NCBI GenBank assembly: GCA_963755975.1
Contig: CAVWLS010000016.1
Location: forward strand, 5,965-69,964
Length of the DNA: 64,000 nt
Direction: 5' to 3'
Source of the DNA: an uncultured Acidobacteriota bacterium
GTDB taxonomy: Bacteria > Acidobacteriota > Terriglobia > Terriglobales > Acidobacteriaceae
Under the pieces are notes generated by a model. That model did not search any database. It was not told the origin of the DNA and saw nothing but the letters and a program-made list of their open reading frames with translations. The translations under genes were made by a program, and so were the position numbers. This document shows, piece by piece, positions 22,735 to 32,120 of the stretch (positions within the stretch are counted from its first letter, which is position 1; the number at the start of each line of letters is the position of its first letter).

Positions 22735-25488
22735 ATGGGACGCTGGGCATCACTTACGATCGCAGCGCTGTTCCTGATCTCCTTCCCTGGCCGCGCCCAG
22801 GCTCCGCCCGAAGCGATCACACCAACTCCGGTCGGACAAACCACCGCACCCAACCCGGCCCAGACCATTACTCCGGGAAGCCTTCTGCAACAGAACCAGC
22901 AGCAACAATCGGCCGGCGCGAACTCCGGCCTTTATCACGAGCTCGATCTGCTCCGGCGAGATGGCTTTTCCGCGGCAAAATCGGCAACCGTCTCGCTCCG
23001 CGTCGTCGACCATGAAGGCGTGATCCCGCCCGGCTTGCAGGCCGGGGACTTCACTCTCATCGTCAACGGCAAGCAACGCGCCTTTCGCCTGCACGCGCCC
23101 GGTACGGCGGCCAGCGTCGTGCCTCCCATGGTTCTGCTCGTCTTTCCGCCGAACGATCCCGTCGTCCACAACATCGGCATAAGAGAGGCTGTTAAGTATT
23201 TCTCAGCGCAGCCCGCTGAGCTGCTCCCATGGCGCGTCGCCATCTTCGATTCCAACGGCGAAATGACGCCCTTCACCAACGGACGCAGCCAGCTTCTCGC
23301 CTTTCTCGATGAAGTCGCGCATACGAAAGAGCCCTTCGAGTACGCCAACGATGTCACCCTGGCCAGAAGTTTTCGCTGGGAGGGCCCCTGGCTGAGCAAG
23401 GCAGAGCTAGCAGTCGGCATGATGCAGCATTACGAAGGCCCCAAGATCATTATTGCCATGAATCCCGTCGACTCCTTTTACGGCCTGAATGACCAGATGC
23501 TCGCCCACGCCGGCCCCGAAGCCCTCACCGGGGTCGCCCAGCGCATCGGCGCTCACATCTACATCGGAAACGTGGGCGGGCCGGATGTCATTATTCCCGG
23601 CGGAGATGCTACTGTCGATCTGTCCCACAAAAGGCCCTCGTACTACATGCAGGTCGATCCTTCGATGACGGCTGCTTTGGGTTTCTCCGCCTATCGCAGC
23701 TCGCAAATGATGCAGACCGCCGCAGCCACTTACGGAGGCTTTGCCAATTCGCTCAACGACCTTGCCGCGCAGATCCACCGCGACCTTGACGGAGGCTACG
23801 CCCTCGACTTTGACATGACGCCCGAGGACCAGGACCACGGCATTCCGGACGTCGGGGTTCGCCTTGCACGCCATGATCTGCGCGTCGCCATTCTCGACGT
23901 CGTCCCGGTCGGTGTGTCAACCGATATCCAGCGCGATATGAACAGGGAGCAGATCTCTGCGCTGTTCAAGAAGGCCGCTGCCACGCCCATCGTGTCGCCT
24001 GAATTCCGCGTCGCCCAGCAAGTCGATTACTTCCCGCTCCGCGACGGCCTGGAACCGGTGCTGCCCATGAGCGCTGTTGTCGAGTGGACCGGCCATGGCC
24101 GGGGGCCGATACTGATCTCGATCGCAGAGCGTGTCGAAGATCCGAACCTGGCCCACGTGATCCTCGAGCGCGAGCTGCGCGTGCACTGGGACGGCCGCAG
24201 CCTTACCTGGGAACGCGACGGGCGGCTCAGCCCCGGCCACTATCTCTGGAGCATCGTCGTACACGACGGCCAGGGAAATATCTACGCCTTCAGCGAAAAG
24301 AAGATCGATGTCGTCTTCCCGCGCAGCGGAGCCATAGGCGTCAGCAGCCTGATCATTGGCAAGTCGTGCCGCGACGATTCCCCATCAACCACCGGCCTTC
24401 AGCATCGCCAGCCGCCGGGCGCAAAAGAGCAGCCACACCTGGCCATCGATCCCATGCGCGCCAACGATTGCCGCCTCAAGCCCGACACCCTCGGGAGCTT
24501 TACCTCGACCGACACCATGCATGCCTTCGTGCGCATCTATCCGCCAGAGAAGCTGGACAAAGGCAGGCCCGAGAGTTGGACGGCAAAATTCGTGCTGCGC
24601 TCGCCGTCGGGTGCCGTCGAAACGGAGCGCGAGATTCCCTTCACGCTCGACTCCAGCTCCGGCTATCTGGCCTCGGTCGAGATGCCCTTAAGCGCCGCCG
24701 AGGTCACCCCCGGCCCGCACACGCTTGACGTTGAGATGCGCGGCCCCGGCATCCATAACGGACTTCAGGGAATCGCGACCGGTGTCGATTTTGGCTCCGA
24801 ACGCTATTCATTGATCGCTGAAGGCTGTCTCCCTTCACCGCAGCAGATCGACCACATTCACGATAAAGCCCGTGCGCGGGTCGTAGACCACCACGTATCC
24901 CTGGAAGTACCCCATCATGTATCCCGGAGGAGGAGGCGGCAGATATCCGTAGAGATGCGGCGGCAGCGGCGTCAGGTAGGGGATGTAGGAATACGGGATA
25001 AATCCCCCGACAATCCAGATCGGACGCGCCCCGCGGTTGATATACCCGAGATTGCGGTAGTAATAGCGGTGGATGTAATTCCAGTCGCCCGGCCGCCATT
25101 GATAGGGCGGACGATACTGCGGCGGCCTGCCCCAGTTCGGTGGACGCGGCGGTGGCGGCTTGGGTCCGGGATTGGGCGGAGGGTAGATCCCAGGTGGTCT
25201 TCCACCTGGTGGTGGCGGCTTGGGTCCGGGGTTCGGAGGCTTAGGACCCGGTTGCGGCGGCTTCGGGCCGGGTTGCGGAGGCTTGGGGCCAGGTTGTGGC
25301 GGCTTCGGGCCGGGCTGTACCGGCTTTGGCGGGTTCGGATAGGGCTGGATGCTCATGTCGCCGCCGGGCTTGGACGGCGGACGCGGATTTTGACTCGGCG
25401 GCCGGTTCGGAGGCGGGGCCGGTCGGGTACTCGGCGGTGGAGGCTGCTGCTGGGTACTTTGCGCCGCTGCCGGCAGCATTGCCGCTAA
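22735..25488 (+). CDS. Large secreted protein distantly related to the two VWFA-related paralogues; literal ORF, but the true 3' end probably lies near 24.8 kb
   Basis: Signal peptide MGRWASLTIAALFLISFPGRAQA; VSLRVVDHEGVIPPGLQAGDFTLIVNGKQRAF. After about 24835 the frame becomes Arg-rich antisense read-through of the proline-rich gene on the other strand. No stop occurs before 25488. Confidence 0.6.
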   Translation: MGRWASLTIAALFLISFPGRAQAPPEAITPTPVGQTTAPNPAQTITPGSLLQQNQQQQSAGANSGLYHELDLLRRDGFSAAKSATVSLRVVDHEGVIPPGLQAGDFTLIVNGKQRAFRLHAPGTAASVVPPMVLLVFPPNDPVVHNIGIREAVKYFSAQPAELLPWRVAIFDSNGEMTPFTNGRSQLLAFLDEVAHTKEPFEYANDVTLARSFRWEGPWLSKAELAVGMMQHYEGPKIIIAMNPVDSFYGLNDQMLAHAGPEALTGVAQRIGAHIYIGNVGGPDVIIPGGDATVDLSHKRPSYYMQVDPSMTAALGFSAYRSSQMMQTAAATYGGFANSLNDLAAQIHRDLDGGYALDFDMTPEDQDHGIPDVGVRLARHDLRVAILDVVPVGVSTDIQRDMNREQISALFKKAAATPIVSPEFRVAQQVDYFPLRDGLEPVLPMSAVVEWTGHGRGPILISIAERVEDPNLAHVILERELRVHWDGRSLTWERDGRLSPGHYLWSIVVHDGQGNIYAFSEKKIDVVFPRSGAIGVSSLIIGKSCRDDSPSTTGLQHRQPPGAKEQPHLAIDPMRANDCRLKPDTLGSFTSTDTMHAFVRIYPPEKLDKGRPESWTAKFVLRSPSGAVETEREIPFTLDSSSGYLASVEMPLSAAEVTPGPHTLDVEMRGPGIHNGLQGIATGVDFGSERYSLIAEGCLPSPQQIDHIHDKARARVVDHHVSLEVPHHVSRRRRRQISVEMRRQRRQVGDVGIRDKSPDNPDRTRPAVDIPEIAVVIAVDVIPVARPPLIGRTILRRPAPVRWTRRWRLGSGIGRRVDPRWSSTWWWRLGSGVRRLRTRLRRLRAGLRRLGARLWRLRAGLYRLWRVRIGLDAHVAAGLGRRTRILTRRPVRRRGRSGTRRWRLLLGTLRRCRQHCR

Positions 25489-25536
25489 GCAGCACAACAA
25501 CACCCCCCTAACCACCGCAGTGAACCCGCTTCTCAT
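24835..25536 (-). CDS. Secreted proline-rich protein with an RcnB-like C-terminal domain
   Basis: Signal peptide MRSGFTAVVRGVLLCCLAAMLPAAAQ; (PGPKPPQ)n repeats; C-terminal LPPPPPGYMMGYFQGYVVVYDPRTGFIVNVVDLL. Confidence 0.7.
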   Translation of the reverse strand: MRSGFTAVVRGVLLCCLAAMLPAAAQSTQQQPPPPSTRPAPPPNRPPSQNPRPPSKPGGDMSIQPYPNPPKPVQPGPKPPQPGPKPPQPGPKPPQPGPKPPNPGPKPPPPGGRPPGIYPPPNPGPKPPPPRPPNWGRPPQYRPPYQWRPGDWNYIHRYYYRNLGYINRGARPIWIVGGFIPYSYIPYLTPLPPHLYGYLPPPPPGYMMGYFQGYVVVYDPRTGFIVNVVDLLR

Positions 25537-25655
25537 GAGCTTCTCCTGCTCTGCGATCATTCGGCGCCAGATTACTTCGATTGCGGAGGAAACGCAAACC
25601 GCCGGGCAGCCCGGAACGTTACTGAATTCCTGCCGCGCCCCTATGTTGTCCGGCT

Positions 25656-26285
25656 TTACGGCGCCGCCGCTGCCTTCCTGCCCATGCCTTTGCGCACTGC
25701 AACCACCGCCAGAACCAGCAGGATGACGCCCAGCGCCGCCAGAGTTGCCAGCATGTGCGCATGCATCAACTCGGTCAACTCGTGGACAATCTGCGGACCA
25801 TACCGGATCGTCAGCAGGCTCACCACTGTCCACCGCACCGCCCGGCCCGCCGCCACAGCGAGCATGAATGTGACGACCCGCATCTCGAAGACGCCCGCCG
25901 CGAAGACAAAGAGCTTCCACGGAGTCGGCGGCGGCATCATCGACGGAATCATCAGCGCCAGGAACTCCTGCTTCTCGAACTTATTGCGCATCTTCTCGTA
26001 GCGCGCCCGGTCGATGCGCTTCATCAGAAAGATCTCGCCGCCGGCGCGCCCGAGCCAGTAGGGAACCAGCCCGCCGATCGCCGAGCCGATCGCCGCCATC
26101 AGCACATAGAGGTAAAAACGGTGGGGATCGCTCCACGCATACCCCGCGACGATCAGGTCCATCGGCACCGGGATGGAGCTCGAATCGAGCACCGCCACCG
26201 CGCCCACCCCCCAGAAGCCCAGCGGCTTCAGGAATCCGAGCAGCAGCGCCTTGTATTTCGTCGAAAGCTCCGCCAGCCGCTTCAA
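25656..26285 (-). CDS. DedA/YqaA-family membrane protein
   Basis: [65 protein letters not shown]. Confidence 0.8.
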
Positions 26286-26958: not shown

Positions 26959-28008
26959 ATGCCGATCACCGAAGTTCCGCCCAGCCCTCCGAGCGCCGCG
27001 CCTGAACCGCCCCGTCTTCGCCGGCCGAATCGATACGAGGATTACGAAGTCCACGACCTGCTCAACGTCATTGAGGAGCTCGAAGGCGATCGCAACTGGG
27101 CCAGCCTGCGCGAAAAGATCTGGATCGCGCTCATCATCCACATGATCGTCTTCTGGTTTATCGCTTACGGGCCGCGATATCTCTTCAATGTGAAGGTCCG
27201 CGATGCCTCACTGGTGCTCAAAGACCGCCAAAAGGACATGACCTTCCTCGACCTGCCTCCTGATGCCCTCAAACAGGTCAAACCAAAGCCGGCGCCGCTC
27301 TCCGACAAGAACCGCGTGGCCGAGACGCGCAAGCCCACCCTCGACAAGAAGACTCTCCAGCAGCTTGAGGCCATGCGCCGGGCCGGTCCGCCCACGCCTC
27401 AGCCGGAGGCGCAACCGTCGCCCGCACCGCCGGCTCCGCAGGTGGCCCAGCAGCCGCAACCGCAACCTCCCGCGCAGCCTTTGCCGCAGAATCAGCAGAG
27501 CCAGATCGAAGCGCCGCGTCCGGCGCCCACCAAGCCCAACTTTGACACCGGGCACTCCACCGTCGGCCAGGATATCCAGCAGCTCGCCCGCCAGGCGCGC
27601 GGTTCCGGCCAGTCCGGTGGAGACATGGGCGCCAACGCGCCCGTGCAGCATCCTGGCCTGCAGGGCGGAGCCGAGATCCTCAGCGACACCATGGGCGTCG
27701 ACTTCGGTCCGTATCTCCAGCGCATTGTCTATGACACCAAGCGCGCCTGGTATCCGATCATCCCCGAGGCCGCGCAGCCGCCCCTGCTCAAGCAGGGCCG
27801 CGTCATGATCCGCTTCCATATCCTGCGCGACGGCAGCGTGAAGAGCATGCAACTCGAGCTGCCCTCGGGAGATGTCTCGCTCGACCGCGCCGCCTGGGGA
27901 GGCATCACCGGAGCCTCGCCCTATCCGCCGCTGCCGAAAGAATTCAAAGGCCAGGATATCGAGCTGCGCTTCATGTTCCTCTACAACATTCCCGCAGGCC
28001 AGGAATAG
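26959..28008 (+). CDS. TonB-family energy transducer
   Basis: N-terminal TM (IWIALIIHMIVFWFIAY), Pro/Gln-rich spacer, C-terminal TonB domain (QPPLLKQGRVMIRFHILRDGSVKSMQLELPSGDVSLDRAAWGGI). Confidence 0.8.
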   Translation: MPITEVPPSPPSAAPEPPRLRRPNRYEDYEVHDLLNVIEELEGDRNWASLREKIWIALIIHMIVFWFIAYGPRYLFNVKVRDASLVLKDRQKDMTFLDLPPDALKQVKPKPAPLSDKNRVAETRKPTLDKKTLQQLEAMRRAGPPTPQPEAQPSPAPPAPQVAQQPQPQPPAQPLPQNQQSQIEAPRPAPTKPNFDTGHSTVGQDIQQLARQARGSGQSGGDMGANAPVQHPGLQGGAEILSDTMGVDFGPYLQRIVYDTKRAWYPIIPEAAQPPLLKQGRVMIRFHILRDGSVKSMQLELPSGDVSLDRAAWGGITGASPYPPLPKEFKGQDIELRFMFLYNIPAGQE

Positions 28009-28175
28009 GGATTTCCGAGTGGCGGCGAATGAACGGCTGTTCCGTCGACAGATTTCGGGATTGCTGATCATCGCGGCGATTATCCTGGTCATCGCGCTGC
28101 TGCGCGCCGACCGGCATGTGCTCTTCTCGCCGGGGTGGTGGCGTTGGTGAACGGAGCGACCGAGCGCAGCATTCG

Positions 28176-28203
28176 CTGAGCGAAAGTAACGTAGTCGAAC
28201 GAT
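28176..28203 (+). repeat. Degenerate partial copy of the REP-like element seen at 32143 and 60687
   Basis: ctgagcgaaagtaacgtagtcgaacgat compared with ctgagcgaagtacgcgcagcgtacgtagtcgaaggat. Confidence 0.4.
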
Positions 28204-28259
28204 TTGAAATTATTTAATCTTGTGGATGAGCGGCAAAATAAGCCGCAGGAGAACGCAAG

Positions 28260-28457
28260 ATGCATGACGCTCTGACCATTGGGATTCCGCTCGTTGCGAT
28301 TATTGCCGGCATTCTTTTCAATCGATCGGACTTCCAGAAGCTGGAGAGTCGCATTGACGCTATGCAAGCGGAAATCCACCGCGAGTTCCGCGAGTTCTAT
28401 CGCACACTCGGGCAGCATGACGTGCGCCTGGACCACGTTGAAAAGAAAGGTGCATAG
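28260..28457 (+). CDS. Small hypothetical protein (one TM helix plus a coiled-coil-like tail)
   Basis: MHDALTIGIPLVAIIAGILFNRSDFQKLESRIDAMQAEIHREF... Its TAG stop is in frame with the miaA body that follows. Confidence 0.35.
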   Translation: MHDALTIGIPLVAIIAGILFNRSDFQKLESRIDAMQAEIHREFREFYRTLGQHDVRLDHVEKKGA

Positions 28458-29419
28458 GCTACGCCGACGGCCTTCGCCACCAGCCCCGATCCCCTCGTTG
28501 TCATTCTCCTCGGCCCTACCGCCAGCGGCAAAACCGCCCTCTCGCTCACCCTCGCCGAAAAATTCCACGGAGAAATTGTCAGCTGCGACTCGGTCGCCGT
28601 GTATCAGGAAATGGAGATCGGCACCGCCAAGCCTTCACTCGCCGAACGCCGCCGGATCCCGCATCATCTGATCGATGTCTATGCGCCGAACGAGCACTCG
28701 ACTGCCGGAGACTACTCACGCCTCGCCCGTGCCGCACTGCACGAGATCGCCGGTCGCAATCAACTTCCCATCGTGACCGGAGGCACCGGCCTTTACCTTC
28801 GTGCCTTGATCGAAGGCCTCTTCGCCGGACCGCAGCGCTCGCCTGACCTGCGCGCCCGGCTCGAACGGAGTGCCCAGCGCCACGCGCCCGGCTGGCTGCA
28901 TCGCATTCTCGCCCGCCTCGACTCCCCTGCAGCCGCGCGCATCCACGCGAACGACACGCCCAAGCTCATCCGGGCTATTGAAGTTTCGCTCGCCGGGCGT
29001 CGGCCTATGTCCCAGGCGTGGAAAGAAGGCCGCGACCCGCTCACCGGATTCCGCTTCCTGCGCATCGGCCTCGACCCTGACCGCAAGGCTTTGTATGCCC
29101 GCATCGACGCCCGGGCGAAAGCGATGTTTGACCTGAAGGCACTCAGTCAGAAGAAACCCGCCGCCTCATCTCGAAATATGGAGACACGCCCCGCGCCTTC
29201 GACTCTCTCGGATACAAGCAGGCCCGCGCCGTTCTGCGCGGCGAGATGACACTTCCGGAAGCTACCGCCTCTGCCCAGCAGGGACACCGCAACTACGCCA
29301 AGCGACAGTTGACGTGGTTTCGCCGCGAGCCGGATGTTCTTTGGCTCAAGGGATTCGGAGATGAGGCGGGGATTGCTGCAGGGGCAATAGCGGCTGTCGA
29401 AGACGCGACTCCCGATTAA
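28458..29419 (+). pseudogene. miaA: tRNA dimethylallyltransferase MiaA with no canonical start upstream of its P-loop and a frameshift near 29133
   Basis: Frame 0: ..PLVVILLGPTASGKTALSLTLAEKFHGEIVSCDSVAVYQEMEIGTAKP..RIDARAKAMFD. Frame 2 from 29135: EETRRLISKYGD..LGYKQARAVLRGE..NYAKRQLTWFRRE..*. The first ATG/GTG/TTG in frame 0 is at 28599, after the Walker A motif (28512-28535). Confidence 0.8.
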
Positions 29420-29464
29420 TGATCGACTCCCATTTGCCGGTCTCGCCTTCGCAGTGCGCAATGT

Positions 29465-30658
29465 ATGATGGTGGCCGCTGAGGCCCTGTGGCCAGAAATA
29501 TATTCGCCGCCCGAGGTACGATTGCACGCAAAGAAGCCATCGCCAGCTGCCGTAAGCGCAGGAGCCAGTAACCAACCCCGCTGGGATGTATTCATTGCGC
29601 ACGCCGCCAGTGACATTCGTTTCGCGATAAGTCTCTACCGGCAACTTCTCCCCAGATTTCGGGTCTTTCTCGCATCCGAGACGCTAATTCCCGGCGATGT
29701 CTGGACCACTGCTATACCAGCCGCTCAACGCAACTCCTTAGTTACTGTTGTCCTTATGTCCAGCTCCGATAGCGGGTATTACCGGCAAGAGGAGATTGCC
29801 GCCGCGATCGAAATGGCGCGACGCCCGGACTCCAGGACGCGTGTGATTCCCGTCTTTCTGTCCAGACAGATTCCTGACGATGTTCCGTATGGCTTGCGTC
29901 AGCTTCACGCCATCAAAGGTGTGACTTCAATGAAGGTGATCGCTGAAAAGATTGGCAAAGTCGTAGAGAGAGTCGCCAACCTGGAGAGTGACACGGCTGC
30001 AACTCCTGGGTCTGGTTCGACCCTGAAATCCGACGTCTCCGGCACTGCATACGTATCCGGCAGAATGGATATATCTCCAGAGATCCTCCGCGTCTCTCCA
30101 ACAGAAGAACAGGCCGCCGCACCGAAAGAGAACCTGTCGTCTCTAAATAAGCACGAAGGCCACAACTTCCTCACGACCACGCTCATCCATAAAGTCGCGC
30201 AATGGAACGAGCTGAACGTTCACCTGTCTGTGTTGCTACTTGATTTAGACAAGCTCACCAAGATCAACAATGAATACAGCGTTGAAGTCGGAAATCAGGC
30301 ATTGGAAATTGTATTTGAGATTCTAAGGAACTCTAAGGCCAAATACTATGGCCGTTGCGGCGACGACACCTTCTATGCGATTTTTACCGGCCACGCTGCG
30401 ATCAATGCAATCCGGCGGGCCAATCTTCTCCGCAGGAACATCGAGCAATATCCATGGGATCGTCTTGCCAGCGGGCTCTACGTTACTTGCAGCATCGGAG
30501 TCGCAGTCCTGCGCCCCAGGGAGCCCGTTCCTGACTGGCTCGTCCGCGCAGCCATGGGAATGAAGGAAGCAAAGCGCCACGGAGGCAATCAGGTCGCAGC
30601 TGCGCCTGTGTTCATTCCACGATCGACTAGCCGAGAGTTGCGCGACCACTATTCCTGA
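29465..30658 (+). CDS. TIR domain - degenerate GGDEF domain fusion protein
   Basis: TIR: WDVFIAHAASDIRFAISLYRQLLPRFRVFLASETLIPGDVW..VVLMSSS..YYRQEEIAAAIE..VIPVFL. GGDEF fold: LLLDLDKLTKINNEY..YGRCGDDTFYAIF..CSIGVAVL..MKEAKRHGGNQV. Lower GC than the neighbours. Confidence 0.75.
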   Translation: MMVAAEALWPEIYSPPEVRLHAKKPSPAAVSAGASNQPRWDVFIAHAASDIRFAISLYRQLLPRFRVFLASETLIPGDVWTTAIPAAQRNSLVTVVLMSSSDSGYYRQEEIAAAIEMARRPDSRTRVIPVFLSRQIPDDVPYGLRQLHAIKGVTSMKVIAEKIGKVVERVANLESDTAATPGSGSTLKSDVSGTAYVSGRMDISPEILRVSPTEEQAAAPKENLSSLNKHEGHNFLTTTLIHKVAQWNELNVHLSVLLLDLDKLTKINNEYSVEVGNQALEIVFEILRNSKAKYYGRCGDDTFYAIFTGHAAINAIRRANLLRRNIEQYPWDRLASGLYVTCSIGVAVLRPREPVPDWLVRAAMGMKEAKRHGGNQVAAAPVFIPRSTSRELRDHYS

Positions 30659-30662
30659 ATCG

Positions 30663-30726
30663 TTGACACAGAAATCCCTCCAGCTTAAAGGTGTATCGTG
30701 GATAACGGTTTCATATAACGGTTTCA
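30663..30726 (+). promoter_or_regulatory. Candidate promoter (TTGACA-17 nt-TAAAGG) followed by a 12-nt direct repeat, upstream of the oxidoreductase gene
   Basis: ttgaca at 30663-30668; taaagg at 30686-30691; ataacggtttca at 30702-30713 and again at 30715-30726. Confidence 0.3.
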
Positions 30727-30782: not shown

Positions 30783-32120
30783 ATGTTCGACCGCAGAAAA
30801 TTCCTTCAAGCCGCTGCCGCAGCTGCCGTCACTAGCCGCCTCGAACCTCTGTTCGGACAAGCCTCGTCAACGCCAACCTCGCCCAACGACAACATCCAGC
30901 TCGCCCTCATCGGCGCGGGTATCCAGGGACAGGGCGACACCAAGACCGCGATCCAGGTGCCGGGCGTGAAGCTGGTTGCCGTGGCCGACTGCTACGACGG
31001 ACGCCTCGCCCACTCCAAAGAACTCTGGGGCGCGGACATCTTCACCACGCGCGACTACCGCGAGATTCTTTCGCGTAAAGACGTTGACGCCGTTCTGATC
31101 GCCACGCCCGATCACTGGCACAAAACCGTCGCCGTAGACGCCATGAAAGCCGGCAAAGATGTCTACCTCGAGAAGCCGATGATCCACATCTATCCCGACG
31201 GCCCGGAGATCATCGAGACCGCCCGCTCCACCAACCGCATCATCCAAGTCGGCAGCCAGCGCGTCAGCTCCATCGTCTACGCCAAGGCCAAGGAGCTGCT
31301 CGCATCGGGCATCATCGGCAAGCTCAACATGGTGAGCGCCTGGTGGGACCGCAATTCTTCGATTGGAGCATGGAACTACTCCATCCCGCTCGACGCCTCG
31401 ACCGAAACCTGCGACTGGCCGCAGTTCCTCGGCAGCGCGCCCAAGATCCCCTGGAACGCCGAGCACTTCTTCCAGTGGCGCAAATGGAAGGCTTACGGAT
31501 CGGGCGTCGCCGGCGATCTCTTCGTGCACCTCTTCAGCGGCACGCACTTCATCACCGGCTCCCACGGCCCCACCCGCGCCATGGCCACCGGCGCGCTCCG
31601 CTACTGGAAGGATGGCCGCGATGTCGACGACGTCCTGCTCGCGCTCTTCGATTATCCAGAGGGCTTCAACCTCAGCCTGCGCGTCAACTTCGTCGATGGA
31701 GGCGAGGAGAGCGAGGGCTTCGTATTTGTCGGTTCCGAGGGCCAGATGGTCATCGCCGGGCAATCGGTCGCGGTGAACCGCGTTCCGCGTGAGAGCGAGC
31801 CCGGCTACACCGTCTCGACCTTCACCGACGCCATGCAGAAGGAGTACATCGCCGAGTACCGCAAGAAATATCCTGAGCAGCATTTTTCCGGGGCGGTACC
31901 GACGGCCATGGAGAAGTTTGCTCCGCCCGCCGGATACTCCGACAGCTACGACCACTTCCATAACTTCTTCAACGCGGTGCGCAGCCGTAAGCCCGTCGTT
32001 GAGGACGCCACCTTTGGATTCCGCGCCGCCGGCGCCGCCCTGCTCAGCAACCTGAGCGCGGACAAAGGCACCGTCGTTCACTGGAATCCCGAGACGATGA
32101 AGGTGGTTGAAAAATCGTAA
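30783..32120 (+). CDS. Gfo/Idh/MocA-family oxidoreductase with a twin-arginine signal
   Basis: MFDRRKFLQAAAAAAVTS; Rossmann LALIGAGIQGQGD; VDAVLIATPDHWH; EKPM. Confidence 0.85.
   Translation: MFDRRKFLQAAAAAAVTSRLEPLFGQASSTPTSPNDNIQLALIGAGIQGQGDTKTAIQVPGVKLVAVADCYDGRLAHSKELWGADIFTTRDYREILSRKDVDAVLIATPDHWHKTVAVDAMKAGKDVYLEKPMIHIYPDGPEIIETARSTNRIIQVGSQRVSSIVYAKAKELLASGIIGKLNMVSAWWDRNSSIGAWNYSIPLDASTETCDWPQFLGSAPKIPWNAEHFFQWRKWKAYGSGVAGDLFVHLFSGTHFITGSHGPTRAMATGALRYWKDGRDVDDVLLALFDYPEGFNLSLRVNFVDGGEESEGFVFVGSEGQMVIAGQSVAVNRVPRESEPGYTVSTFTDAMQKEYIAEYRKKYPEQHFSGAVPTAMEKFAPPAGYSDSYDHFHNFFNAVRSRKPVVEDATFGFRAAGAALLSNLSADKGTVVHWNPETMKVVEKS

Follow-up and report, generated by a model that had tools for sequence, protein, structure and literature searches.

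A TIR domain joined to a remodelled GGDEF fold: a candidate one-gene conflict protein in an Acidobacteriota genome

We analysed a 64,000-nucleotide stretch of DNA from an uncultured Acidobacteriota bacterium (contig CAVWLS010000016.1; the whole stretch is called the window below) and concentrated on one of its genes, encoded at 29465..30658 on the plus strand, whose product joins a TIR domain to a module derived from the GGDEF fold. The module belongs to a distinct clade with its own active-site signature, GRCGDDTF, and is attached to different effector domains in different relatives. The gene itself lies in a segment that is missing from the same site in related genomes. In our favoured interpretation, to which we give about an even chance, it encodes a horizontally acquired and self-contained immune or abortive-infection conflict protein, i.e., a nucleotide-gated sensor-effector that would end in NAD+ depletion. 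We regard it as probable that the clade is a one-gene immune or conflict family.

The two domains of the fusion protein

The gene has an ATG start and an uninterrupted frame of 397 codons plus a stop. A first-pass annotation of the window, made from the letters alone, had read it as a single open reading frame (ORF) joining a TIR domain to a GGDEF-fold domain, and both profiles do match above the curated Pfam thresholds: TIR_2 at residues 42-151 (51.1 bits for a cutoff of 28) and GGDEF at residues 234-376 (57.1 bits for a cutoff of 23.8). The NCBIfam model TIGR00254 (GGDEF) scores 61.6 bits. The AlphaFold2 model, computed with 13 homologues as input, has two confident segments (residues 40-178 and 224-397), and the predicted local distance difference test (pLDDT) of the GGDEF part stays above 90 up to the final residue. 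The linker, first put at about 100 residues, consists of about 45 disordered ones (179-223; 29999..30133 on the plus strand; pLDDT below 50) that follow a long helix (156-178). In two alignments, neither its length nor its sequence is conserved among homologues. The public gene call for the same protein (P0001, 100% identical) has 300 residues, begins at M98 and cuts the TIR domain in half. We take the 397-residue ORF to be the real one because there are full-length homologues with both domains (333-377 residues, 34-45% identity to the window protein).

The TIR domain (residues 40-178; 29582..29998, plus strand) is supported by the Pfam match, the AlphaFold2 segment and the match to AbTIR. It is predicted to be of the enzymatic (NADase) type because AbTIR, the Acinetobacter NAD+ hydrolase, is the best PDB match of the clade TIR profile (E-values of 4e-25 and 1e-24) and because the putative catalytic glutamate of the alphaC-helix motif (S..W/Y...E), E110 (codon 29792..29794, plus strand), is invariant in the 13 aligned TIR-type members of the clade (13/13). 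In the comparison of this profile with PDB, E110 aligns with the Glu of the AbTIR motif W-T-N-Y-E-L. PdTIR and TcpB come next in the ranking, and TIR-STING, Cat1 and SPARTA TIR-APAZ come lower. TIR-SAVED is another of the PDB matches.

The GGDEF-derived palm module (residues 224-379; 30134..30601, plus strand) is supported by Pfam, by pLDDT values above 90 and by its Foldseek match to DosC. It superposes on the GGDEF domain of DosC with a root-mean-square deviation of 1.7-1.8 Å over about 155 columns (TMt 0.82-0.85), and on solved GGDEF domains overall with 1.7-2.4 Å (TMt up to 0.88). The best 50 Foldseek matches of the module are all GGDEF domains, and the best full-length match is PleD, which combines a receiver domain with GGDEF. 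The Cas10 palm profile matches the window protein with an E-value of only 0.059.

The signature G296-R-C-G-D-D-T-F-Y304 (30350..30376, plus strand) stands in the clade alignment in place of xRYGG(D/E)EF. The motif had at first been described as a degenerate GGDEF reading CGDDT; it is indeed non-canonical, but that register is one residue off and the notion of decay does not hold, since the signature is conserved across a clade. GGDEF corresponds to G299-D-D-T-F303, with C298 occupying the place of the Tyr that precedes the motif. Two observations settle this register: two clade members have GRLGGDEF and RKWGKDEF at this place, and the HMMER alignments to DosC and PleD give the same correspondence. 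An alternative register, in which CGDD would correspond to the GGDD of Cas10, is ruled out by the same GRLGGDEF and RKWGKDEF members together with the invariant R297 and F303. The reading of SVEVGN as the counterpart of the GH..GD element was correct.

We then compared the residues of 105 clade members with those of 41 canonical controls aligned to the same profile, using the numbering of PleD, which agrees with the HMMER alignment to 2wb4. The roles of the PleD residues in the metal site, base and phosphate contacts, transition state, catalysis and gamma-phosphate binding are well established. The scaffold that binds nucleotide is retained. The metal-binding D327 corresponds to D260 in the window protein and is Asp in 104/105 clade members and 41/41 controls; D329 (D262) is Asp in 103/105 and 41/41. 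Among the base contacts, N335 (N268) is Asn in 102/105 and 41/41, and D344 (N277) is Asp in 74 and Asn in 23 of the 105, with Asp in 40/41 controls. R366 (R297), G368 (G299) and F372 (F303) are invariant in both sets (105/105 and 41/41 each). The metal ligand E370 has become Asp throughout the clade (D301; 105/105), an exchange seen in 3 controls, the other 38 having Glu, and the phosphate contact K442 (K370) is Lys in 98/105 and 41/41. The equivalents of D327, N335, R366, E370 (as Asp) and K442 are thus kept in at least 93% of the clade. The metal-binding Asp residues D260, D262 and D301 are all present in the window protein, and its predicted model is GGDEF-like.

A different set of positions is replaced, and consistently so. 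The transition-state residue K332 is T265 in the window protein (Thr in 89, Ser in 8 and Asn in 5 of 105; Lys in 30/41 controls), the catalytic E371 is T302 (Thr in 99 and Ser in 6 of 105; Glu in 41/41), and G369 is D300 (Asp in 92 and Glu in 7 of 105; Gly in 41/41). The gamma-phosphate contact R446 is G374 (Gly in 71/105; Arg in 38/41), and Y367 is C298 (Cys in 97/105; Tyr, Trp or Phe in the controls). In PleD and WspR, E371 serves to activate the acceptor 3'-OH, K332 stabilises the transition state and R446 holds the gamma-phosphate. One segment, D260-L-D262-K-L-T265-K-I-N268 (30242..30268, plus strand), displays both trends, with the metal Asp pair, the Thr that stands for K332 and the base-contacting Asn. 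The inhibitory I-site motif RxxD, which is common but not universal upstream of GGDEF in diguanylate cyclases, is absent: positions 290 and 293 of the window protein are Ser and Lys, and neither is conserved across the clade. Binding of cyclic di-GMP (c-di-GMP) through an I-site is hence ruled out.

The module also has elements of its own. In the clade, W331 is invariant; canonical GGDEF domains lack an equivalent. A C-terminal extension (residues 380-397; 30602..30655, plus strand; A-P-V-F-I-P...S-R-E-L-R-D-H-Y-S-COOH), modelled with a pLDDT of about 90, corresponds in the clade alignment to a tail of 18-20 residues past the point where the domain usually ends (G/A380, P381, [FY]-L, S-R-x-L, aromatic-Ser-COOH). 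P381 is found in 99/103 clade members. The terminal Ser is found in 92/103 when judged by the end of the sequence and in 96/103 when judged by the alignment column, and is preceded by Phe, Tyr or Trp in 79. Taken together, the residue patterns indicate that a scaffold for binding nucleotide and Mg is kept and that the residues for condensing GTP with GTP have been exchanged for small hydroxyl or acidic ones. They point to an active site that was remodelled, i.e., to neofunctionalisation under purifying selection, and not to one that decayed. Canonical c-di-GMP synthesis had been called doubtful early on. With GG[DE]EF missing and Thr or Ser at the catalytic Glu in 105/105 members, we conclude from the alignments that the module is not a c-di-GMP synthase.

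As a side observation, two clade-specific cysteines lie on adjacent strands of the palm sheet beside the active-site hairpin: C298 (30356-30358), which is Cys in 95/103 members, and C342 (30488-30490), which is Cys in 83/103. Both are found in 76/103, and each can vary alone. They may form a redox or metal site, or may simply pack around the invariant Trp.

A clade with swapped effectors

A search with the module profile against 1.84 billion cluster representatives (clusters at 50% identity) returned 397 matches at E-values of at most 1e-30. From the best 150 of these and the homologues gathered earlier, 103 sequences, counting the window gene, carry [GA]R.G.D[TS]F[YF], and 87/103 have the exact GRCGDDTF[YF]. 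The other matches among the best 150, about 47, are ordinary GG[DE]EF proteins that lack the tail. The window gene has all the hallmarks of the clade: GRCGDDTFY, DLDKLTKIN, W331 and an end in ...RDHYS-COOH. The proteins are small (about 330-420 residues), and homologues with a non-TIR N-terminus also keep G-R-C-G-D-D-T-F-Y. Public sources name them 'diguanylate cyclase', and NCBIfam holds just the generic GGDEF domain. Their sequences indicate that they form a distinct, GGDEF-derived clade which databases label in error.

The N-terminal domains are diverse. Pfam finds GGDEF in 103/103 members, TIR_2 in 34, TIR in 18, CHAT in 10, SEFIR in 6 and ThsB_TIR in 3, with single instances of DUF4062, EAD7, EAD8, PNP_UDP_1, Peptidase_C14 and CSD. 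Several N-terminal domains have no match at all. The architectures include caspase-EAD8-EAD8-module (Microseira and Phormidiaceae), EAD8-module (Nostoc) and class-III cyclase-module (a deltaproteobacterial metagenome-assembled genome, MAG). The N-terminal domain of one member matches the PADLOC model bSEFIR with an E-value of 2.7e-49, and CHAT-module proteins match the PADLOC models chat and SAVED_CHAT (the latter on P0039; CHAT E-value of 4e-16). Six members match the Cas10 palm profile weakly, the best with an E-value of 4.6e-6, and the PADLOC Cas10 model is matched with an E-value of 8e-4. Effectors are thus swapped on a constant module.

The clade is rare and sporadic. In confirmed relatives, the GRCGDDTF peptide occurs at 18 loci among about 185,000 species genomes and in seven phyla, the taxa being Acidobacteriota, Chloroflexota, Cyanobacteria, Alpha- and Deltaproteobacteria, Bacteroidota and Actinomycetota. 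In an all-against-all blastp of 220 ORFs located up to 6 kb from 24 loci, no family of neighbours recurred at three or more independent loci, and shared neighbours were confined to near-identical genomes (L004/L006 and L009/L012). The contexts of the homologues are dissimilar: hydrogenase and complex I genes, PdxS, or ABC-F and MFS genes. Some loci have mobile neighbours (three coupling proteins of type IV secretion systems, two integrases, a resolvase, a reverse transcriptase), and some have neighbours with a role in defence (type I and type IIG restriction-modification, MADS components, Cas10d, SoFic). The window gene had been described as having no obvious partner genes. This is borne out at both scales, with housekeeping neighbours in the window (TonB, miaA and a GFO/IDH/MocA oxidoreductase) and no conserved neighbour across the 24 loci.

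One locus preserves an operon with a recognisable logic. In a MAG of Nostoc sp. TH1S01 (L010:9479-12715), consecutive genes encode an EAD8-module protein, an EAD8-trypsin-like peptidase and an EAD8-iSTAND protein; MoxR or vWA genes were not identified in the examined part of this locus. According to Kaur et al. 2020 (PMC7159879), effector-associated domains (EADs) are homotypic adaptors of which one copy is carried by a core component, for example iSTAND. Further copies are found on effector or signalling enzymes, often encoded by the adjacent gene, and EAD8 mainly recruits effectors (PMC7159879). The fusion partners and this operon grammar are two independent lines of evidence, and because of them we place the module among biological-conflict systems.

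Two further loci deserve mention in their own right. In Microseira wollei NIES-4236 (L009:4683-10543) and in a Phormidiaceae MAG (L012), genes for a 781-residue CHAT/C25-like protease and a 547-residue protein with no Pfam match lie, on the opposite strand, ahead of the gene of the caspase-EAD8-EAD8-module protein. Both are conserved between the two loci and may be extra components of the caspase-EAD8 variant. At L005:3860-5755 (minus strand), a gene with TIR_2 and NB-ARC (STAND) domains lies about 4 kb from the TIR-module gene of the homologue P0005. Several genes of this nanopore-style contig (peroxidase, ABC-F, phosphorylase) are split by frameshifts, so its gene calls are unreliable.

The insertion site and its flanks

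The fusion gene was horizontally inserted. It occupies a segment of about 1.27 kb (29422..30687) with a G+C content of 0.545, for 0.61-0.63 in the surroundings; the gene itself has 0.546 (0.60 at third codon positions) and its neighbouring genes 0.61-0.65 (0.73-0.83), in agreement with the low-GC insert noticed in the first-pass annotation. As a synteny anchor we used the Tat-signal GFO/IDH/MocA oxidoreductase encoded downstream (30783..32120, plus strand; identified by Pfam), for which we collected 80 orthologous loci at 73-90% identity. Among the closest relatives, five (86-90% identity) retain the synteny of miaA and the oxidoreductase. Proof of the insertion comes from two of these genomes, in which the orthologous site stands empty, with miaA and the oxidoreductase 207 nucleotides (L026) and 141 nucleotides (L030) apart. 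The left edge of the insert lies just past the miaA stop codon, and homology with the empty sites restarts at about 30688, at GGTGTATCGTGGATAACGG.

In three other relatives the same junction holds a different gene. About 1.1 kb of low-GC DNA (0.52-0.53) encodes, on the opposite strand, a protein of 259-272 residues with a TIR-like (nucleoside-deoxyribosyltransferase-like) domain and a prokaryotic YEATS (pYEATS) domain (L025:4965-5744, L027:4939-5757 and L029:4944-5741, all on the minus strand). The pYEATS match of L027 scores 27.5 bits for a cutoff of 26.9, TIR_2 stays under its cutoff in the junction proteins (21-23 bits), and none of the three genes has a PADLOC match. The junction thus behaves as a one-gene variable hotspot that is empty or holds alternative TIR-type conflict genes. 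We found no notable direct or inverted repeats flanking the insert, no integrase at it, and no tRNA nearer than 28 kb. A perfect 12-nucleotide tandem duplication, ATAACGGTTTCA, lies at 30702-30726 with a spacing of 13, starting 15 nucleotides past the right boundary. It falls inside the conserved upstream region of the oxidoreductase, is in single copy in L026 and L030, and could be an insertion footprint or an operator change.

Upstream of the insert, miaA is damaged, as first reported. The remnant (28461..29421, plus strand) lacks a canonical start codon and is frameshifted once, at about 29135-29160. The match to the Pfam IPPT profile is divided between two frames, and a three-frame translation shows the break at a short stretch of variable length after ...ARAKAMFD, between the AMFD and EETRRL codons. 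The P-loop N-terminus is in frame, with no ATG, GTG or TTG upstream of the P-loop; the orthologues have a single frame and an ATG start 8-10 codons before it. The damage may be biological or a sequencing error, and the main conclusion is independent of which of the two it is. A second low-GC patch (0.52-0.56) covers positions 28000-28600 of the window, directly upstream of miaA. It holds an ORF at 28260-28457 (plus strand; 65 residues) with one predicted transmembrane helix and a coiled-coil-like tail, whose stop codon abuts the start-less miaA. A different gene lies upstream of miaA in L025-L027 and L030, where miaA has an ATG start. In the window, the miaA start may have been lost through a second small insertion.

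Further away, a minus-strand ORF of 361 residues (24835-25920), which contains long proline-rich repeats (PGPKPPQ), overlaps with the end of a plus-strand ORF of 917 residues (22735-25488). The C-terminal 250 or so residues of the latter are Arg-rich and non-coding in appearance, and this ORF is probably over-extended.

Proposed mechanism, alternatives and comparison with known systems

The first-pass annotation had suggested two mechanisms: an NADase that is gated by a nucleotide, and a cyclase that is coupled to a TIR product. We favour the former, with the proviso that sequence alone cannot separate them. Its more general idea of a one-gene abortive-infection or signalling device is strengthened by the fusions to death domains, the lack of a conserved neighbour, the sporadic distribution and the AbTIR-like TIR domain. 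The effector would be the N-terminal TIR domain, acting as an AbTIR-like NAD+ glycohydrolase with E110 intact. The module is the likely sensor of the trigger because the solo protein has no other folded domain to perceive it. It would bind a nucleotide ligand, i.e., a nucleoside triphosphate with Mg or a nucleotide-derived signal that shifts on infection or stress, and ligand-bound modules might then pair or oligomerise, as catalytic GGDEF domains do. GGDEF domains naturally pair around bound nucleotide, so that binding in the absence of turnover would turn the module into a ligand-dependent dimeriser. TIR, SEFIR, CHAT and caspase domains are activated by induced proximity in characterised relatives. 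Pairing would gather the N-terminal domains and could in this way switch on the TIR domain here and the SEFIR, CHAT, caspase or EAD-recruited peptidases in the relatives. The predicted outcome is NAD+ depletion, followed by growth arrest or death of the infected cell.

A bolder version of this mechanism, which we hold to be unlikely, makes the module a new class of immune sensor: a palm domain frozen in a substrate- or ligand-bound pairing state that would report on the nucleotide pool or on phage sponges and degraders of cyclic nucleotides. The aromatic-Ser-COOH tail would be an autoinhibitory pseudo-substrate, or an acceptor for self-nucleotidylation, whose trigger-dependent release or modification might license dimerisation and the firing of the attached death domain (TIR, SEFIR, CHAT or caspase). 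A single chain would then contain the complete circuit for sensing and killing, and its receptor would be a cyclase fold.

Several observations weigh against the nucleotide-gated conflict protein that we favour. No relatives were found on the viral contigs of IMG/VR or the plasmids of PLSDB, and the flanks of the window locus are housekeeping genes with no defence island. PADLOC (2023), whose Aga_TIR and retron-TIR models match the window TIR domain weakly, lacks a model of the module. Two base-pocket positions of the window protein hold minority variants, S272 (shared by 9/105) and N277 (23/105). The retention of both metal Asp residues and of the base and phosphate contacts would suit catalysis equally well. 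The module of L010 occupies the EAD-tagged slot of an effector or signalling enzyme and not that of the core. Finally, inactivity does not follow from the absence of E371 and K332, since the mCpol OptS is active with two Asp (PMC12657218).

These last points bear on the alternative that survives best, which we consider possible but not probable: the module would be an active nucleotidyltransferase with a new chemistry, making a cyclic or linear oligonucleotide other than c-di-GMP or nucleotidylating a protein hydroxyl, e.g., its own C-terminal Ser. This product or modification would regulate the effector in cis, or else play the part of a decoy or guard signal, by analogy with Panoptes. Such an enzyme is consistent with the conservation of D260, D262, D301, N268, R297 and K370 (93-100%), with the activity of OptS in spite of an almost complete lack of the GGDEF motif (PMC12657218), with the six members that match the Cas10 palm profiles and with the slot of the Nostoc module, which in the scheme of PMC7159879 is assigned to effectors and signalling enzymes. 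Kaur et al. also mention rare GGDEF domains as generators of nucleotide signals in VMAP systems. The invariant aromatic-Ser-COOH tail, otherwise without explanation, would gain one if the terminal Ser were an acceptor. On the other hand, E371, K332 and R446 are all replaced, no receptor domain for a product can be recognised in the solo protein, and the fold resembles bona fide GGDEF domains more than it does Cas10 or mCpol, as the best 50 Foldseek matches attest.

The window copy might instead be a decaying or inactive relic, or in part an artefact of assembly or sequencing. The frameshifted and start-less miaA just upstream, the 300-residue database call that lacks half of the TIR domain, the minority residues S272 and N277 and our failure to find a promoter or terminator consensus at the gene would all fit. 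We nevertheless find this improbable: the 397-residue frame is uninterrupted, all invariant residues of the clade and the catalytic Glu of the TIR domain are present, AlphaFold2 is confident for both domains, and a scan for the sigma-70 consensus is weakly informative in a high-GC genome. An ordinary housekeeping diguanylate cyclase, in which the TIR domain (flavodoxin-like, as is a receiver) would be merely regulatory or for interaction, agrees with the above-threshold GGDEF profiles, with PleD as best full-length match and with the public name of the clade, but is essentially excluded because GG[DE]EF is missing, the catalytic Glu being Thr or Ser in 105/105 members for Glu in 41/41 controls, and is further contradicted by the death and effector partners (CHAT, caspase, SEFIR, PNP), by the retained NADase-type Glu of the TIR domain and by the very rare gene's place in a variable low-GC insert that the closest relatives lack.

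Few bacterial signalling domains are as common as GGDEF, whose link to defence has so far, to our knowledge, been indirect only, by way of its relatives Cas10 and mCpol. If the nucleotide-gated reading is true, the clade adds a candidate family of immune or cell-suicide proteins encoded by single genes, with a remodelled GGDEF fold as control domain. The automatic annotation of all its members as 'diguanylate cyclase' is an error to correct. The wiring of one constant module to at least six effector types offers a natural experiment on the gating of induced-proximity effectors. The clade signature is simple to search for, the small proteins are experimentally tractable, and the junction of miaA and the oxidoreductase is a small one-gene integration hotspot in this group of genomes. 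We found no description of TIR-, CHAT- or SEFIR-GGDEF fusions in the searchable full-text literature, a prior listing in Burroughs et al. 2015 (NAR) or in supplements being possible. The protein would represent a single-chain sensor-effector of biological conflict with a cyclase-derived and apparently previously unrecognised control module.

Among known defence systems, Thoeris, which pairs a ThsB-type TIR protein with a ThsA effector (SIR2/Macro-SLOG), was rejected for the window protein, which has no PADLOC Ths match and no partner gene; the ThsB_TIR profile is found in 3/103 clade members. The bSEFIR, retron-TIR and SPARTA TIR-APAZ proteins are likewise encoded by single genes and have an N-terminal TIR or SEFIR domain, but their C-terminal domains are unrelated to the module.

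The EAD-linked NTP-dependent conflict systems of multicellular bacteria draw on the same repertoire of TIR, caspase/CHAT, trypsin and PNP domains, and rare GGDEF domains have been noted in them (PMC7159879). In some relatives the module is joined to their adaptors EAD7 or EAD8. However, most clade members, including that of the window, are solo, with no MoxR, vWA, VMAP, iSTAND or GTPase core nearby, and the GRCGDDTF clade is not described in the main text of PMC7159879. An EAD-linked ternary system was accordingly rejected for the window protein, which has no EAD and no core component nearby, and applies to L010 and L009.

The mCpol/OptS enzymes of Panoptes and the palm of Cas10 also place a GGDEF-related palm in a defence role. 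In OptS the GGDEF motif is largely lost and the acidic residues are kept (PMC12657218). mCpol is a small stand-alone enzyme with a separate gene for a two-transmembrane (2TM) effector, whereas the module is fused to its effector and is, in both sequence and fold, much nearer to true GGDEF domains than to mCpol or Cas10. Panoptes was rejected here, as the module is fused to TIR and no 2TM effector gene is adjacent.

PleD, WspR and DosC have the same fold, and the module shares with them the metal Asp residues, the base-contacting Asn/Asp and the equivalents of R366 and K442. It differs from them in having G-D-D-T-F, Thr for K332 and E371, Gly for R446, Cys for Y367, no I-site, an additional invariant Trp and the tail, and in being joined to death or effector domains in place of sensory inputs. 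Degenerate GGDEF domains that act as nucleotide receptors include the GTP-sensing GEDEF of Caulobacter PdeA/CC3396, as well as PelD and PopA, which bind through the I-site. Such receptors regulate c-di-GMP turnover or housekeeping outputs. They resemble the module in that a cyclase-dead GGDEF fold controls an output, and the module differs by the absent I-site; we know of none that is fused to TIR, CHAT or caspase domains, or that has the GRCGDDTF signature or the tail.

The sensor-effectors of the cyclic oligonucleotide-based antiphage signalling system (CBASS) and of type III CRISPR come closest in design. TIR-STING, TIR-SAVED and the CARF-TIR protein Cat1 likewise combine an NADase-type TIR domain with a nucleotide-handling domain in one chain, and these effectors are activated by ligand-induced assembly. 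The SAVED sensor is also paired with CHAT (SAVED-CHAT), as is the clade module. Membership of these systems was rejected for the window protein because Pfam, NCBIfam and PADLOC detect no SAVED, STING or CARF domain in it; in addition, no cognate CD-NTase or Cas10 cyclase gene is conserved near the 24 loci, and the window neighbours are housekeeping genes. A stand-alone TIR-SAVED protein has been shown to sense a host cyclic dinucleotide and can work with no cyclase of its own. The partner of the TIR domain differs here from those of the other sensor-TIR fusions in that it derives from the GGDEF cyclase fold and not from SAVED, CARF or STING, and lies C-terminal to a disordered linker. By analogy, the closest functional counterparts of the window protein and its relatives would be TIR-STING, TIR-SAVED, SAVED-CHAT and CARF-TIR.

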